This document shows, in pieces, positions 1,413 to 20,655 of a stretch of 20,655 nt of DNA (the first letter of the stretch is position 1; the number at the start of each line of letters is the position of its first letter). A program made the position numbers and the translations under genes. Source of the stretch: a virus. Lineage: Duplodnaviria; Heunggongvirae; Uroviricota; Caudoviricetes. Below the pieces are notes generated by a model. That model searched no databases, was not told the DNA's origin, and saw nothing but the letters and a program-made list of their open reading frames with translations. The stretch lies in the IMG/VR virus record IMGVR_UViG_2740892214_000006. One strand, written 5' to 3'.

Positions 1413-2434
1413 CCGTCCAGAAGAAGACATTTTCACTGGCTGGTATGTCGCCAAAATACAGCAATATGACAGCAAAGTCAGGCATTAATACAGCAGATAC
1501 AAGCAAAGTTTATCATTTGCTGGTGGTAGGAGCGGATGCCTTAACTATGTCAGAAATTACGGTCGATGGTGTTAGCGTTGAGAAGGTCAGCGGCTGCGCC
1601 AGAGAATTTCTGGTCGTAGATCACCTGTTCTGCTCGTGTAGTGACTCCACAAAAACATTCGTCCACGTGCGTGACGTTAACGAAATGAGCGCGATGTATT
1701 GTGCATCTGGTGCTTCCAATAGTGAGTTTTCGGAGTCCATAAAAAAGAGCTTGCCGTTATGCGGCAACACGGTTTATGGTTATAAGGCACCTCATAAAAC
1801 GGGTGCCGGGATTAGGACCCCGCAGGCAATCGAGGCGATACATGACGCGCCAGCGTCTTTTTTTGTATCGGCGCACACGCACACCTTATCAATGGTGGGC
1901 TGTATGGGGCTGACTTCGGTCAGGCTGGTTTCCTTGATTGCCAGTAGTCCTAACCCTGTACAGTCCACCGCCAGCGAGCTTAGGACCTCCGGCGGTGGCT
2001 ATAAACCATCAATCAAGGAGGCTGCCACATGCTGGCTACTACCCCTACCCAAAAACCGCAATTTATCTGGATTATCGCCGCAGTTCGCCGCGATTGCCCG
2101 ACAATTACCGCCAAAATTCATCATATTGCTGCCGAGTCTGAACGCGATGCTCGCCGTTCTCTGGTGCGCGATCACGTCTGCTTTTTTGCTGGTCGTATCC
2201 GCATGGAGGTGGCACATGATTAAAACCTACGATGTGCATATGGATCCCCTCGAACGCACAAGCCAGATCATCACACTGACAGAAGTGATTAACGACATTC
2301 TGGTGAGCAACTCTCCCTCACGAGACGAAAGGCTGAAGGCGTTACTCGCGATATTGGATCTCGCCGTTCGTGACGTTCATTTCCTGCTGGAAGGTGGACA
2401 AATGCCAGTAAAAACGGGGGCAACCAATGAATAA
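1406..2434 (+). CDS. hypothetical protein; long ORF of uncertain structure (N-terminal ~150 aa protein-like; last 72 codons from ATG 2216 may be a separate gene)
   Basis: ATG 1406 has SD GGAGG (1394-1398) and is coupled to the upstream gene. Frame stays open 1029 nt. Translation of about 1900-2215 looks off-frame-like (L/S/P-rich), and ATG 2216 has its own SD GGAGGTGG. Confidence 0.4.
2029..2223 (+). CDS. small hypothetical protein (64 aa), alternative frame embedded in the long ORF
   Basis: Strong SD AAGGAGG (2015-2021) 7 nt before ATG 2029; stops in this frame at 1981 and 2002 just upstream. Stop TAA 2221-2223 overlaps ATG 2216 (ATGATTAA). Charged, protein-like composition. Confidence 0.35.
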   Translation: MLATTPTQKPQFIWIIAAVRRDCPTITAKIHHIAAESERDARRSLVRDHVCFFAGRIRMEVAHD

Positions 2435-2621: not shown

Positions 2622-2881
2622 ATATCAACTCAATTTATCGTCATCCGTGTGAGCTGGAAATTGAATCATTGCTGGGGCGCGAAGAGCCATATCCAGACAC
2701 ATTCACTCCTGCAGATTGCGCGACTGAACGGCTTACCAGAGCGCGCACAGGTCTGGTTCATGTGATGAATGAGATTGTTCCCTCGGTGGGAGGGGAACAG
2801 GCGACAGTAATCAATAGCTGGCTACAAAAAGTTACCTTCCTGATAGATATCGGTTTAATCGATGTGGAGAGTGCGAAATGA
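2618..2881 (+). CDS. hypothetical protein (87 aa)
   Basis: ATGA overlap with upstream stop; SD GGGGGTGA 4 nt upstream. Confidence 0.6.
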   Translation: MNINSIYRHPCELEIESLLGREEPYPDTFTPADCATERLTRARTGLVHVMNEIVPSVGGEQATVINSWLQKVTFLIDIGLIDVESAK

Positions 2882-3099
2882 CCAACATCCAGCTCATTGA
2901 AGCGCAATGTCGCATCGAACAGGTTCAGACTGTTTTAGGGTTCTGGCTTGAAGGGGCCAGCCCAAGCAACAGAGACAAGTTAATGATTGGCGCGGTTATG
3001 TCACTGCTCAATGGCGTACCAGAAGCTATTCAGGAAGCGGACGAATTGTTGGGCAAATATGAGTTACAGAATCATTCAGGCGAGGCGAAACATGAATAA
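2878..3099 (+). CDS. hypothetical protein (73 aa)
   Basis: ATGA overlap with upstream gene; SD GGAGAG upstream. Confidence 0.55.
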   Translation: MTNIQLIEAQCRIEQVQTVLGFWLEGASPSNRDKLMIGAVMSLLNGVPEAIQEADELLGKYELQNHSGEAKHE

Positions 3100-3694
3100 T
3101 TTCTTAACTTTCCATGCAGAAGCAACGCCTGACGGCGTAAACATCATGTACCGCAGCAACGATGGCATGACAGAACGCGTTGAGGCCGTCTCATATATTG
3201 ATGCCGTAAATCGTCTGGATGCCGGGGATTATGACGATAAACCAGATGAAGGTATGTCAATACATCTCGCTATTGCCGATGGCGGCAACCAGGGATATTT
3301 CGATTACACATCACAGCATAACGTCATTATGTGGAGATGGCTGATCGCAACAGTATTCATGCTGGAAATGAGAGAGGAAAACGGCACTGTCAGCATCATT
3401 GATGATACTGGCAATCCTTCCGAAGTGGCTGTTTATTCCAACGGCATCGTCGCCATGCCGCTGTATCCAGTAGCAGAGCGCCTCGCTATGGCAAACAACA
3501 TTGAGGGCGCGATGATAGAACGTTTTGGCATCGAGTCTGGCACAGAACGCGCCATCATTTTCTACAGAGCCATGATGGATGTGGAACAAGGAGCACTGAC
3601 TCCATTTGGTCGTGAAACGCTTGCTGAACTTCACAACAGCTTTATAGCTGAACTGAATGAAAACGGCATGCCAGCGGAACCAGTGACGCACTGA
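3092..3694 (+). CDS. hypothetical protein (200 aa)
   Basis: ATG 3092 overlaps upstream stop (ATGAATAA), SD GAGGCG upstream. The ORF-track start 2987 lies inside the upstream gene and is judged too far 5'. Confidence 0.65.
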   Translation: MNNFLTFHAEATPDGVNIMYRSNDGMTERVEAVSYIDAVNRLDAGDYDDKPDEGMSIHLAIADGGNQGYFDYTSQHNVIMWRWLIATVFMLEMREENGTVSIIDDTGNPSEVAVYSNGIVAMPLYPVAERLAMANNIEGAMIERFGIESGTERAIIFYRAMMDVEQGALTPFGRETLAELHNSFIAELNENGMPAEPVTH

Positions 3695-17013: not shown

Positions 17014-18177
17014 TTACACATCATTAGTACCTTCCTTATTTTTTGACTGGGACAAATTTGGGACCGATGGGTTCAGGATCGAGTCTATTTGCCGTGCGTG
17101 TTCGGTAAGGTGATTAGGTGCAAGGTGAGCATATCGACGAACCATTTCGATAGACTCCCAGCCTCCCATTTCCTGTAACACTGACAACGGGACTCCGGCT
17201 TGAACCAGCCAACTTGCCCAGGTGTGTCTCAAGTCGTGAAATCTGAAATCATCAATACCAGCCCGTCTCAGCGCCGCTTTCCAGGCTGTGTTTGCGTCAT
17301 ACCGCATCTTCCTTACTGTTGGCGCTTTCGTTCCGTCTGGTTTGGTACAGCTTTCCTTGTACACAAATACCCAACGGTGATGATTCCCGATTTGTTTTTT
17401 CAATACGCGACATGCAGTATCATTCAGCGCAACGCCAATTGCGCGGTTTGATTTACTCTCTTCCGGGTTTATCCATGCCACCCGGCGCTGCATATCTATT
17501 TGTTGCCATTCAAGGTTGATGATGTTCGAGCGTCTTAAGCCTGTTGCCAGTGCAAATTCAACAACAGACTTTAATGGCTCCGGACATTCATCAATCAGCC
17601 TTTGTGCTTCATGGGGCTCCAGCCAGCGGATCCGTTTATTCTTTGGTTGAGGCACTTTAATAATTGGTGCCTTATCCAGCATTTTCCATTCACGCTCTGC
17701 GGCTCTTAGTAGGGCCTTTATAAATGAAAGATGCGTAGCCTTCGTTGCAACGGACGCCGGTTTTGGCGTGTATTCTGGAACAGGTTTCCCTTTTTTTCTG
17801 CATGCTTCTGCCCTGAGTTTCCAGTTTTCCTCATGACGCCGGTTCGTCATTTTCTGCATTGCTGAATAAATTTTTGATTCAGTAATGTCTCTTAGTTGCA
17901 TTCCTGCGAAATGTTGAAGCCAGAATCCGATCCGGCTTTTGTCATCGTCCAGTGATTTTTTATGTGCTTTCTCTTCAAGCCACCTGACACACGCTTCCTC
18001 GAACGTTATATCAGGTATTTCACCAAGTTTGCTGACCCGCCATGCTTCAGCCTTTAGCTTGTCATGGAGTTCTGTCGCCTGCCTTTTGTCCTTTGTTCCA
18101 AGAGACTGTTTAAATCTTTTACCGTTCGGCAATGTGAAACTGGCGTACCATATTTCACCTCTGCGGAAGAGTGACAT
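17014..18177 (-). CDS. int: tyrosine integrase, P22-type
   Basis: 387 aa; N-terminus [28 protein letters not shown] matches my recollection of P22 Int; catalytic motifs [10 protein letters not shown] and RRYAHL; strong SD GAGGAAAG upstream. Confidence 0.95.
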
Positions 18178-18709: not shown

Positions 18710-19065
18710 TATGCTCCAGCCTCCGGTGCTTTTGGCATTACTGCCCAGTGAGTGATATTGACGTTTTCAAGATCCCCGACCTGAAATGTCCACTGCCATT
18801 CTCCGGTTTCTTTTTGTCCCCAGGTGTACCAGAGAGAACGCCAGCCAATTAGCCAGCCTTCTCCGTTAGCATCGAATAACAAAACACTTTCATTTGCTGG
18901 TGGCAGTTCAGTTGACACTGGTATTACTTTGTTTTCCTGTGCTGCACATTTAGCTTCAAGCGCATCGAATTTACGCACCAGGTATTCAGCATCTGTTTCA
19001 TTCACTTTCAGATCTCGCGGTACACATCTCCCACGAAGAAACCCTTCCATTTCGAAAACATTCAT
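18709..19065 (-). CDS. hypothetical phage protein, Trp-rich (DUF551-like?)
   Basis: Likely start is ATG 19065, overlapping the HD gene stop (ATGA); ORF-track start is 19071. Trp-rich segment GWLIGWRSLWYTWGQKETGEWQW...ITHWAVMP. Confidence 0.65.
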   Translation of the reverse strand: MNVFEMEGFLRGRCVPRDLKVNETDAEYLVRKFDALEAKCAAQENKVIPVSTELPPANESVLLFDANGEGWLIGWRSLWYTWGQKETGEWQWTFQVGDLENVNITHWAVMPKAPEAGA

Positions 19066-19598
19066 GCGCATTTGCGTAACTCCGATAACTCGTTAAAACG
19101 TTCCATAAACATCCCGTAGGCATGGCCCGGTGCCTGTGGAATCACTTTGAACATCTCTGTTGCCGGGATACCTTCCAGTACAGGCCAGAAAGAGCCATCA
19201 TCAAGCCCGAGATCGCGGCGTTCGGTTGCCAGCATAATGAGATCGGCATATTTCACTGGCGTGCTCATAACAGGAGGTAACCCGTATTTCTCACGGATTA
19301 CGGCGTCTATTTTTTCTTCCATCCGTTTATAGTCAGGAAGAAGTCGTTTCAGTGGTGCGGGGATGTCCTGGCAATATGCTTCTGTTGCATCATGCATTAA
19401 AGCTTCAAAAGCAAATTCCTGTGGCACCAGCTGGCTGCAAAGCACCGCATGTTGGGCGACACTGTAGAAGTGTGAAAGATGTCCTGCAAAGCGACAGATA
19501 TTTGAAAGGGAAACCGCGATATCGTTAATAACGATGTCGTCTTTATTTATCCTGTCATAATAAAAATGCTTCCCGGAAAAAGTTTTAATAAATGACAT
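19062..19598 (-). CDS. HD-domain phosphohydrolase (YfbR-like 5'-deoxynucleotidase family)
   Basis: Start ATG 19598 with SD GGAG upstream (ORF-track ATG 19625 lacks one). Motifs H...H (FAGHLSHFYSVAQHAV), HD (ALMHDATEAY) and DIPAPLK resemble YfbR. Confidence 0.85.
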   Translation of the reverse strand: MSFIKTFSGKHFYYDRINKDDIVINDIAVSLSNICRFAGHLSHFYSVAQHAVLCSQLVPQEFAFEALMHDATEAYCQDIPAPLKRLLPDYKRMEEKIDAVIREKYGLPPVMSTPVKYADLIMLATERRDLGLDDGSFWPVLEGIPATEMFKVIPQAPGHAYGMFMERFNELSELRKCA

Positions 19599-19639
19599 TT
19601 TGTTCTCCACGTATATGCGCTGCACCGCGCTGAATTCGG

Positions 19640-20140
19640 GTAAAAGGAAGCCCTCACCGTCCGGCGATTATTGAGTCAATTACATTTCCATAAATGCCCC
19701 CGTAGGGGCGGTTAGTTTCTCCACAAAACAGAGAAGAACACCTGCGGTGGCAGCCGCCCGGATGGATTGGGTTATGAGCCCGTCGTCCGGTGATGCTCTT
19801 CTCTGTTTTGTAAAAAGGACGGTACCAGCCGGAAGCAAGGGTACAAGCTGGTACCGCCAAGACTACACACAGCATAAAGTTGTGGTGCCGGGTGCCTCCC
19901 GGTGCCTGGCGAAGGTTGCACACCAGGCGGGTGGGTATCCACAGAAGGTCGACTGTCAGCCTCAACCTTAACCCGCGTGCGCTGAGCCGCATTCACCACA
20001 ACGCTAAGGATTCTCTCTGGTTGAAAATACTTAGCTGTTATGTGCCTGCTTTTAGCCACATCAGGCGAGGTGGACCTAGTTATTCCCCAACAACAAGGAT
20101 TCGGTTAATCTGGTTATCCCCAACAACGTAAAAGGAAAAG
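19640..20140. other. GC-rich structured non-coding region (candidate ncRNA or recombination/regulatory site)
   Basis: About 500 bp with only overlapping Arg/Pro-rich ORFs on both strands. 14-bp inverted repeat CAAAACAGAGAAGA / TCTTCTCTGTTTTG (19724-19737, 19797-19810) encloses 59 nt with nested hairpins; 9-bp stem GGTACCAGC / GCTGGTACC (19821-19855); more GC hairpins to about 19950. Confidence 0.3.
20080..20127. promoter_or_regulatory. tandem repeats TTAT(T)CCCCAACAAC upstream of a low-GC gene
   Basis: Copies at 20080-20094 and 20114-20127, 16-50 nt upstream of ATG 20143; candidate operator or promoter element. Confidence 0.35.
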
Positions 20141-20142
20141 AA

Positions 20143-20577
20143 ATGTCCGGTAATATCTATACGCTGTACAAATCCCACTGTGAAAATGTTGGAAAGTATC
20201 GGGGCATTGAAATCAGTGGGGTAGTGTCATCAGTCGAAATAAGCAAAGTTGAATCAAGGGCAACATTACTTACTCTTTTGGACCTTGTCTTACATGAGCA
20301 CCGGAAGAAATTCGGCACTCCCTATAATCAGTTGAATGGGAAAAAGGCTCTGGTTCACCTTATTCTGATGAAGCATCACTGGATGCCAAAACAGATTAAT
20401 GAGATGAAATTTGATGAACTTCTTCTTTCAATTCAGGATGAACTCACACTTGATAAAATAAGCGTAACCGCCCAGAAATTTTTAGATTATCGAGACTGGA
20501 GATCACAAATTCATCACTTTGATGATTTTGACGAAAATGAATGGGATCCTAATTTGTCTGCACAATATCTAAAGTAA
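20143..20577 (+). CDS. hypothetical protein (144 aa), low-GC moron
   Basis: AAGGA upstream of ATG 20143; coding sequence is AT-rich next to a GC-rich upstream region; no family recognised. Confidence 0.65.
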   Translation: MSGNIYTLYKSHCENVGKYRGIEISGVVSSVEISKVESRATLLTLLDLVLHEHRKKFGTPYNQLNGKKALVHLILMKHHWMPKQINEMKFDELLLSIQDELTLDKISVTAQKFLDYRDWRSQIHHFDDFDENEWDPNLSAQYLK

Positions 20578-20655
20578 CATCCTGGGCACTGTTGCAAAGT
20601 TAGCGATGAGGCAGCCTTTTGTCTTATTCAAAGGCCTTACATTTCAAAAACTCTG

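Follow-up and report, generated by a model that had tools for sequence, protein, structure and literature searches.

What kind of element occupies the half kilobase (kb) that precedes the early-left operon of a lambdoid prophage? This question is raised by positions 19640–20140 of a 20,655-nucleotide (nt) stretch of DNA, referred to here as the window (IMG/VR record IMGVR_UViG_2740892214_000006), which is the left arm of an SfV/SfII-like lambdoid prophage of Escherichia coli. A first-pass annotation, made from the sequence alone, had pictured a non-coding region rich in guanine and cytosine (GC), built around an inverted repeat, and had left three options: a structured non-coding RNA, a recombination site, or the remnant of an inserted element or disrupted gene. 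It gave no strand and no link to the known RNAs STnc100, DicF or RprA. The region consists of RNA modules lined up on the minus strand, which is also the strand of the early-left operon. In our view, with a probability of roughly 70%, this minus-strand unit is the structured leader of a pL-type operon and holds a complete gene for an Hfq-type small RNA (sRNA).

The centre of the chain is a 124-nt core (19879–20002, minus strand, as for the other modules), which shows a five-helix, cloverleaf-like fold of the STnc100 type. Helix P1 (UUGUGGUG/CACCACAA) closes it and encloses P2 (UGCG-GCUCAG-CGCA), then P3, P4 and finally P5 (CCGGG-AGGCA-CCCGG). The core is directly preceded by a 5' hairpin (GCUAAG...CUUAGC, 20003–20035), found in both the minimum-free-energy and the centroid folds, and this hairpin by a conserved 38-nt box (CCACCUCGCCUGAUGUGGCUAAAAGCAGGCACAUAACA, 20036–20073). 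On the 3' side, a 20-nt linker (UUUAUGCUGUGUGUAGUCUU, 19859–19878), single-stranded in the centroid fold, leads to an intrinsic terminator (19812–19858), in which the stem GGCGGUACCAGC/GCUGGUACCGUC (19847–19858 with 19818–19829) is followed by a C and a UUUUU run (19812–19816). The distance from the start of the core at 20002 to the end of the U-run at 19812 is 191 nt, and such a U-run after the terminator is seen on the minus strand only. The further stable stems of the first-pass annotation are confirmed, namely a perfect one of 10 base pairs (bp) at 19820–19829/19847–19856 and a perfect one of 9 bp at 19879–19887/19994–20002. The GC enrichment is there as well, although it is only moderate: 0.525 for 19640–20140 against 0.475 for the whole window, which is among the top 10% of 500-nt windows. 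The value rises to 0.59 in the sRNA part (19812–20002), the flanking genes being at 0.46 and 0.38.

Folding energies point to the same strand. The minus strand of 19812–20076 folds at -107.6 kcal/mol, with a z-score of -3.2 relative to shuffled sequences, and the plus strand of this segment reaches a z-score of only -1.7. For the minus strand of 19626–19875, the z-score is -5.0 and none of 200 shuffles folds as well. More detailed insights were obtained by comparing homologues. With a pattern taken from the invariant part of the core, at least 120 IMG/VR contigs and five GTDB genomes were recovered, which gave 37 distinct cores. The five helices were defined on a MAFFT alignment of 19 distinct sequences, which is not fitted to structure. 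In this alignment 92.2% of the cells are paired, compared with 34–46% when the 3' partners are slid; nine pairs are changed on both sides (two to four in the slid controls) and the covariation score is 0.20 (about 0.05 when slid). A covariance model of our own, R1, was built from the window subfamily and scores 125 bits at the core locus. It finds the element in nine phage types and in 35 distinct IMG/VR sequences, with 92–95% of cells paired and 10–11 doubly changed pairs, both of these alignments being model-fitted and hence biased towards structure. Across the alignments, 32–49% of cells are paired in slid-partner controls.

The double changes are spread over the fold. In helix P1, U-A becomes C-G in phages related to phage P1; in P3, U-A becomes G-C; in P4, it becomes C-G or G-C. 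The P5 stem CCGGG/CCCGG is replaced by GGUGG/CCACC in LLS, Eeyore and Kp4866-6 with its AGGCA loop unchanged, and in phiES15 and loci L046 and L123 internal hairpins have been swapped wholesale and are still hairpins. G-U pairs are frequent, as for pair 27–94, which is G-U in 14 of the 19 sequences. The functional molecule is therefore a minus-strand RNA, because the opposite strand, or DNA, would have A-C mismatches in place of these conserved pairs. The core is thus a conserved RNA structure, and the non-coding RNA option of the first-pass annotation is the one supported, by covariation, by reciprocal covariance-model matches to STnc100, by the terminator and by the strand-specific G-U pairs.

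How widespread is this structure, and does its distribution leave room for a function at the DNA level? With a 561-bp BLAST query (window 19600–20160), parts of the region were found in 3004 of 5426 complete E. coli genomes, 658 of which carry at least 80% of the query; partial copies number two per genome in the median and eight at most. Escherichia, Shigella, Salmonella, Cronobacter and Klebsiella all have phages with BLAST homologues. Wherever there is annotation, across about ten phage types in five genera, the unit is flanked by the repressor gene on one side and by the first gene of the early-left operon (yfdP, yfdR, kil or a recombination gene) on the other. The homology is modular, with different sub-blocks shared from phage to phage and block borders at hairpins. 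Such borders, together with the copy number and the perfect 15-bp inverted repeat described below, are what a recombination or attachment site, a cruciform, or a mobile-element scar flanked by inverted repeats could be expected to show. The copies are nevertheless all at the equivalent prophage position and not dispersed, the conserved G-U pairs do not fit a DNA cruciform, and there are neither target-site duplications nor a transposase, the direct repeats of the region being only short matches of 8–18 nt. A DNA-level element is consequently a most improbable explanation. The recombination-site option is not supported as a function either, the modules being conserved as RNA structures across the phages of the five genera. 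The borders of the modules are mosaic joints between phages, and recombination there is an evolutionary by-product.

The same comparison bears on the coding capacity of the region. It could be imagined that the locus encodes a small basic protein of 112 amino acids (SfII_35) or is what is left of a disrupted gene. The mutually overlapping open reading frames (ORFs) noticed on both strands by the first-pass annotation do exist (112, 52 and 95 amino acids on the minus strand, 74 and 83 on the plus strand) and have no Pfam match. The 112-residue ORF (19654–19992, minus strand) is an annotated coding sequence (CDS) in SfII, SKA5 and others, and a "frameshifted hypothetical protein" for the Prokaryotic Genome Annotation Pipeline (PGAP). 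However, its ATG lies inside helix P2, and the frame, though not the nucleotide structure, is broken in ST64B, LLS, mEp460, phiES15 and several IMG/VR variants: from the same ATG, a stop is met after 7 codons in ST64B, 18 in LLS, 25 in mEp460 and 41 in phiES15 (7–41 in five lineages). Indels of 1 nt are tolerated, and the substitutions track base pairing rather than codons. This ORF is not a gene, and a protein or pseudogene is hardly credible as the function of the locus. The inserted-element or disrupted-gene remnant fares no better, since it is the RNA structures and not the ORFs that are conserved in the five genera. Annotations lying over or antisense to the RNA include SfII_35 (KC736978.1 27535–27873), mEp460_036, F1055_0036 and the PGAP pseudogene QUE22_RS17815; the public CDS and pseudogene annotations on this structured RNA are probably spurious.

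To which RNA family does the core belong? A permissive Rfam scan gives a sub-threshold match to STnc100 (RF02076) at 19809–20032 (minus strand), which covers model positions 1–206, the full length, with 43.4 bits (E = 5.3e-8). Sub-threshold matches to STnc100 are also obtained at the equivalent position in SfII, phiES15 and ST64B. In the other direction, R1 finds the canonical STnc100 downstream of stx2B with 33.5 bits (E = 3.3e-7) and all 128 positions aligned, at a site where the Rfam model itself scores 153.8 bits. The relationship is therefore reciprocal, each model recognizing the RNA of the other. The core is a divergent, sub-threshold relative of STnc100 placed in the early-left leader. 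HnrS and StxS are late-region RNAs and unrelated.

The linker provides a second connection, this time with a core-genome sRNA. Positions 19874–19859 (minus strand, UGCUGUGUGUAGUCUU) are identical at 16 of 16 nt to the K-12 rprA stretch UUGCUGUGUGUAGUCUU, which immediately precedes the RprA terminator. These 16 nt are upper-case, i.e., highly conserved positions in the Rfam RprA consensus, and form the most conserved stretch of RprA. A weak Rfam RprA match on Eeyore led to the alignment of K-12 rprA with the phage tails; in LLS and Eeyore the identity extends over 26 nt and runs into an RprA-like terminator. LLS scores 40.8 bits against Rfam RprA (E = 0.0016, cut-off 70), with only the 3' half aligned, and the RprA model (RF00034) gives no match in window 19500–20300 at E ≤ 10. 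Of 124 complete IMG/VR extracts, 97 contain the shared stretch, and the 27 that lack it are the P1-like loci. In Hfq-dependent sRNAs, a conserved single-stranded stretch directly before the terminator is the usual place of the seed. From its sequence, 19874–19859 is a putative seed, and the AU-rich 5' part of the linker a putative RNase E site. According to RNAduplex, it is another stretch of RprA, CCCCUGAGUGAAACAACGAAUU, that pairs with the rpoS leader. The RprA–rpoS duplex lies mostly upstream of the shared stretch, and activation of rpoS by the phage RNA can therefore not be assumed. The window RNA picks an rpoS site different from that of RprA, which is uninformative as a target test.

The terminator stems differ among homologues, with a U-run always following the stem (phiES15, ST64B, LLS); the window terminator aligns to that of the STnc100 model, and its 5' arm is DicF-like (UUGGCGGUACCAG versus UUGGCGGUAUCAG). 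At the other end, the position of the 5' hairpin is held by hairpins of unrelated sequence in phiES15 (12 bp), ST64B (8 bp), LLS/Kp4866 and prophage Qin. The 38-nt box is 97% identical over 38 nt in the Cronobacter phage phiES15, and 93% identical over about 30 nt in LLS and Eeyore, despite different flanks in all of them; even Klebsiella phages fall within this 93–97% range. In LLS, which is without inserted genes, it lies about 10–40 nt downstream of the predicted pL promoter. The box might mark where the unit begins on its 5' side, or serve as a site for a protein or for an RNase.

The inverted repeat, which the first-pass annotation had singled out, encloses exactly 59 nt as reported, but its arms are 15 bp perfect (19723–19737/19797–19811) instead of 14, and extend to 25 nt at 84% complementarity. 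It is indeed structured, but is not the sRNA itself: it belongs to a separate three-way-junction hairpin (19714–19816, minus strand) downstream of the sRNA terminator. The outer stem, about 25 bp long, takes in the terminator U-run, which is paired with GGAGAAA, and the junction can thus form only in read-through RNA. One inner hairpin (CCGGACGACGGGCUCAUAACCCAAUCCAUCCGG) is conserved and the second is variable. Among the 38 pairs predicted by RNAalifold on 13 variants, nine show compensatory changes and many are G-U. The junction and the terminator are also found in mEp460, cdtI and Stx2c phages without a BLAST-detectable core. Judging from its anatomy, this hairpin is a putative RNase III site in read-through transcripts.

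Prophage Qin of K-12 (locus L140) provides a third connection. Between dicF and dicB (L140 2955–3082, plus strand), R1 detects a window-type core with 72.6 bits (E = 1.7e-17), where Rfam STnc100 scores 34.4 bits; this is the 5' untranslated region (UTR) of dicB, in which K-12 RefSeq annotates nothing. Directly upstream of dicF (L140 ~2682–2882, plus strand) come a long hairpin GAAAGCGCA/UGCGCUUCC, also present in LLS and Kp4866-6, and a variant multi-helix domain GUUGUGGC...GCUGCAAC. This variant core, which R1 does not detect, is of the type found in Salmonella phage F1055, with a GUUGUGG...CAAC closing helix, an AA linker and a P2-type hairpin; together with DicF it amounts to about 190 nt. 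DicF has been described in two sizes, 190 nt, for which RNase III makes the 5' end, and 53 nt, produced by RNase E; both derive from the pL-like dicBp transcript, with no internal promoter found (bioRxiv 10.1101/2023.04.14.536235). The long hairpin, the variant domain and DicF between them account for the 190-nt species. Coordinate arithmetic with this published cut places the RNase III site that yields the 190-nt DicF at the base of the Qin 5' hairpin. In a global alignment, 48 of 69 columns are identical between the window tail and DicF, which is better than 500 of 500 shuffles.

These elements can be placed in the transcription plan of the prophage. In strain LR-06 (locus L001), which carries an identical prophage, a LexA-like repressor gene, cro and cII are found about 0.9–1.5 kb rightward, past the window end. 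With yfdR on the left, the region therefore lies between the repressor region and the first early-left gene. Guided by the homologues for promoter, processing, Hfq binding, trans action and targets, the following course may be proposed. Transcription would come from the right on de-repression, most likely from pL beside the LexA-like repressor gene, about 1.2 kb past 20142 and outside the window. The nascent RNA would fold into the 5' hairpin, the 124-nt core, the single-stranded linker and the intrinsic terminator, and termination at 19812 would release an RNA measuring about 190 nt if counted from the core and up to about 260 nt if the count starts at the 38-nt box. With dicF as the model, cleavage by RNase III at the 5' hairpin and by RNase E within the AU-rich linker would give forms of about 190 and 65 nt. 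The shorter one, made up of the seed, the terminator hairpin and the U-tail, would act as an Hfq-dependent base-pairing sRNA whose seed copies that of RprA. Since no promoter is seen from the terminator to yfdR, expression of the early-left genes must depend on read-through; read-through transcripts would continue into yfdR, yfdS, yfdT, xis and int, and would form the 25-bp three-way junction, where RNase III would probably separate the sRNA from the yfdR-to-int message. The most likely product of the unit would accordingly be an Hfq-type sRNA made by termination and RNase processing.

Several observations weigh against this reading. A consensus scan of 19400–20655 found no sigma-70-like promoter near the unit, and inspection by eye showed no acceptable -35 element upstream of TAAAAG; the RNA may therefore be silent in a repressed lysogen. 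Here, transcripts started at pL have to cross the ECs1072-family gene, which lies to the right, in antisense before they arrive at the unit. The window 5' hairpin, with about 12 paired bases, is short for RNase III. Upstream of dicB and in phages like P1, the core runs straight into an ORF or a tRNA and has neither seed nor terminator, which shows that it has a role of its own beyond trans base pairing. An Rfam search in gathering mode returns no STnc100 match, 43.4 bits being below the cut-off of 47, and the element was therefore missed both by such scans and by public annotation. The DicF model (cut-off 48) gives only 19.4 bits (E = 0.15, cmscan) at 19817–19871 (minus strand), and similarity to DicF by BLAST or nhmmer is not significant alone, the best BLAST match in the window being at the tail with E = 0.4; the link to DicF therefore rests on architecture and position. 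No target assignment is possible from ftsZ and rpoS pairing: for ftsZ, RNAduplex finds 162 of 300 shuffles as good as the window RNA, in a test of low power, since the corresponding figure is 50 of 300 for DicF itself.

The position of the unit would also suit a leader acting in cis, in which the core, with or without the 38-nt box, works on the polymerase or on the downstream message by processive antitermination of the HK022 put kind, by regulated attenuation at the terminator or by an effect on the stability or translation of the next gene, the released RNA being a by-product. It is indeed promoter-proximal in a long operon and stands directly before the terminator that must be passed for yfdR to int to be expressed; in LLS, only about 10 nt separate it from pL, and it is all that stands before the terminator. 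No N gene is present in the annotated loci examined of these phages, the canonical STnc100 is also located inside a long antiterminated operon, and cores without a terminator are found in the dicB 5' UTR and upstream of the tciA gene of phage P1 and of membrane-protein genes. On the other hand, the linker is kept across divergent cores and terminators and looks like a trans-acting seed, being that of RprA, and the relatives of the unit are Hfq-bound sRNAs with partners identified by RNA interaction by ligation and sequencing (RIL-seq). The leader also has no similarity to HK022 putL, and its five-helix fold differs from the two-stem, V-shaped put RNA (PMC9378689).

A structure of another kind was observed closer to the promoter. 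In L001, the predicted pL (TTGCCA-N17-TAGATT) lies beside the LexA-like repressor gene, and directly downstream of it is a box of about 62 nt with two hairpins (L001 7245–7308, minus strand, about 0.6 kb past the right end of the window). SfII (100%), ST64B, F1055 and Eeyore have all kept this box, with covariation in the second hairpin (CCUGG/CCAGG versus CCGGU/ACCGG). The box is a candidate antiterminator, whose position matches that of HK022 putL with no detectable similarity; the folds of both are unremarkable. Homology to HK022 put was sought with all leaders against the HK022 cI–nun interval (BLAST, word size 7) and rejected, as only chance-level matches of 14–19 nt were obtained (E ~0.05–0.08). 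Coming right after pL, the two-hairpin box is a better put-like candidate than the core, and a purely cis-acting function of the latter appears unlikely.

The shape of the core raises yet another possibility, in which its task would be to be recognized by factors that process or bind tRNAs. It would then be a platform for processing or stability, or a decoy for host defences that target tRNAs, the seed and the terminator being an interchangeable add-on. The order of helices and linkers mirrors a class II tRNA: closing stem, 2-nt linker, 4-bp arm, 1-nt linker, long arm, extra arm, and a 5-bp arm abutting the closing stem. The genomic company of the core is also suggestive. P1, P7 and SJ46-type phages carry one or two cores interspersed among tRNA-Asn, tRNA-Thr and tRNA-Ser genes, upstream of tciA/terB or small membrane-protein genes (L035 11278–11401 and 11957–12091, L083 5115–5238 and L092 4354–4477, all minus strand; phage P1, OP279344.1 66305–66526). 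A ribosome-binding site follows these cores directly, except in L092, where the core ends 5 nt before tRNA-Ser. The canonical STnc100 itself lies about 1.4 kb downstream of ileZ-argN-argO.

Two groups of leaders add to this likeness. Locus L003 (mEp460, 3174–3308, minus strand) contains a divergent core, also seen in Stx2a_WGPS2, whose P2 loop AGGCUGAU shows 6-nt complementarity to the P5 loop AGAUCAGCA, suggestive of a contact like that of the tRNA elbow, between D-loop and T-loop. In L009 (Kp4866-6) and L008 (F1055), T-arm-like hairpins (CUGGUUCGAUUCCAG and GUCCGUUCGAUUCGGAC, loop UUCGAUU) are found within the 5' hairpin region, with no tRNA called there by ARAGORN. The loop–loop contact is convincing only in mEp460: in the window type the complementarity is only 3 bp with a wobble, and the sequences are too invariant for a judgement. 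Furthermore, the Rfam tRNA model has no match in window 19500–20300 and ARAGORN, run on related core loci only, calls none; there is neither a CCA end nor an anticodon-like loop, the P5 loop has 5 nt instead of 7, and the likeness is one seen by inspection only. A tRNA-like module as the main function is accordingly a doubtful proposal.

These comparisons nonetheless allow a broader picture to be sketched, which we put forward tentatively. The core could be a mobile, tRNA-like RNA cassette of temperate enterobacterial phages, serving as a processing and stability platform for interchangeable seed–terminator tails that copy host sRNAs. In this speculative scheme, its sites would be the pL leaders of SfV/ST64B/mEp460-type phages, the Stx late operon, the tRNA–tciA–ban operon of P1/P7 and both sides of dicF in Qin. 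Its tails would perhaps be the RprA-type seed in the window, the whole 3' half of RprA in the case of LLS and Eeyore, and DicF in that of Qin. If this were true, prophage induction would hijack host sRNA regulons; the 190-nt form of DicF, the dicB leader and STnc100/PasD would be one family; and the RprA 3' half and the phage tails would share ancestry.

Even without this extension, the element is common, yet annotated as nothing, as a hypothetical protein or as a pseudogene in the records examined. A literature search on ST64B, SfV and CPS-53 likewise turned up no account of an sRNA at this position. Its recognition as an RNA gene corrects these annotations and adds a prophage sRNA with a seed identical to that of RprA. 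RprA regulates rpoS, csgD and ydaM (PMC5861431; PMC13501541), and with a seed of this type prophage induction could impinge on host circuits for stress and biofilm formation. The comparison also joins four RNAs so far studied apart from one another: STnc100/EcOnc27/PasD, the long form of DicF, the dicB leader and an unnoticed element of phage P1. The idea that phages build sRNAs from a shared structured platform and swappable seeds is testable.

The surroundings of the unit complete the description of the locus. The minus-strand early-left genes of the window are int (17014–18177), xis, yfdT-like and yfdS-like genes, and yfdR (19062–19598), which encodes an HD-domain 5'-deoxynucleotidase; the ECs1072-family gene starts at 20143 on the plus strand. 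Since PGAP places the yfdR ATG start at 19598, the true non-coding gap begins at 19599 and extends to 20142. Its left end (19599–19697, minus strand) is the 5' leader of yfdR, homologous to the yfdQ–yfdR spacer of K-12 CPS-53 (93.6% identity between window 19600–19709 and L006 4874–4983). At the joint of this leader and the three-way-junction module is a small GC hairpin, GCCCCUACGGGGGC (19698–19711, minus strand). Hairpins of other sequence occupy the equivalent position in mEp460, LLS and F1055, homology blocks overlap there, and the window hairpin resembles the one that precedes yfdP in mEp460. The genes yfdP and yfdQ are absent from this prophage, and a deletion or exchange at the hairpin is likely.

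At the right end, the spacer 5' of the ECs1072-family gene (20074–20142, not assigned to a strand) contains two copies of TTATYCCCCAACAAC (20081–20095 and 20114–20128, plus strand). Homology to SfII and phiES15 stops at 20073, and a conserved copy of the spacer precedes another plus-strand gene in Salmonella phage F1055. It is probably the control region of the ECs1072-family moron, outside the conserved RNA unit. The repeat was considered as an operator and rejected, as it is absent from the cI–cro interval of the full prophage; it possibly belongs to the control region of inserted morons. Far to the left, isrK (window 1787–1863, plus strand, 63 bits) adjoins a C4 antisense RNA (1888–1975, plus strand, 80 bits), both above the Rfam gathering score. 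This pair is a P1/P7-type immI antirepressor control module, and the same pair is found in the mEp460 and ST64B loci.

How does the unit compare with known RNAs? Textbook knowledge of phage lambda offers a parallel for its 3' end: as with the N-leader and sib hairpins cut by RNase III, a long, near-perfect hairpin is found in the pL transcript, is partly made of a terminator tail and forms only in read-through RNA. The window hairpin differs from these in being a three-way junction with conserved inner loops and in having no sequence similarity to them, and its cleavage is putative. HK022 put is likewise a promoter-proximal structured RNA of the early operon of a lambdoid phage without an annotated N gene, upstream of a terminator. 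However, put folds into two stems within about 70 nt and follows the early promoter closely, whereas the window RNA has five helices and ends at its own terminator. RprA is a core-genome envelope-stress sRNA at ydiK–ydiL, whereas the window locus is a prophage; the window unit has neither the 5' stem-loop of RprA nor its CCCCUGAGUGAAACAACGAAUU stretch.

DicF (RF00039) is similar in position, in a pL-like operon downstream of a repressor gene. Its long form is built alike, with a 5' hairpin, a closed multi-helix domain, a single-stranded stretch and a terminator within about 190 nt, and the 5' arm of the terminator has UUGGCGGUAYCAG in common with the window. The seed is different. The unit thus shares its architecture and position with the DicF long form, and membership of DicF is not claimed.

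STnc100, to which the core is related, is also prophage-borne. Both share a core closed by a GGUG...CACC helix, with internal hairpins, with CCGGG-AGGCA-CCCGG placed next to the 3' strand of the closing helix, and both end with an intrinsic terminator on the 3' side (19812–19858 in the window). STnc100 overlaps EcOnc27 of E. coli O157, an RNA of about 235–247 nt that is bound by Hfq (PMC4104026 supplement; PMC12711010), and PasD1 and PasD2 of enteropathogenic E. coli, which were shown to be Hfq-dependent on Northern blots (PMC8550237), have been linked to STnc100 (bioRxiv 10.64898/2026.05.13.724894). The two RNAs differ in their P2 and P3 hairpins, and the window 5' hairpin replaces the outer helix of the Rfam model. 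Their contexts differ as well, STnc100 being usually found in the late region of lambdoid or Stx prophages, downstream of stx2B or near Q or Q–lpxR, and the window element in the early-left region, from the repressor gene to yfdR. Compared with STnc100, the window unit is further distinguished by the RprA-type seed in its linker and by the three-way junction that follows its terminator.

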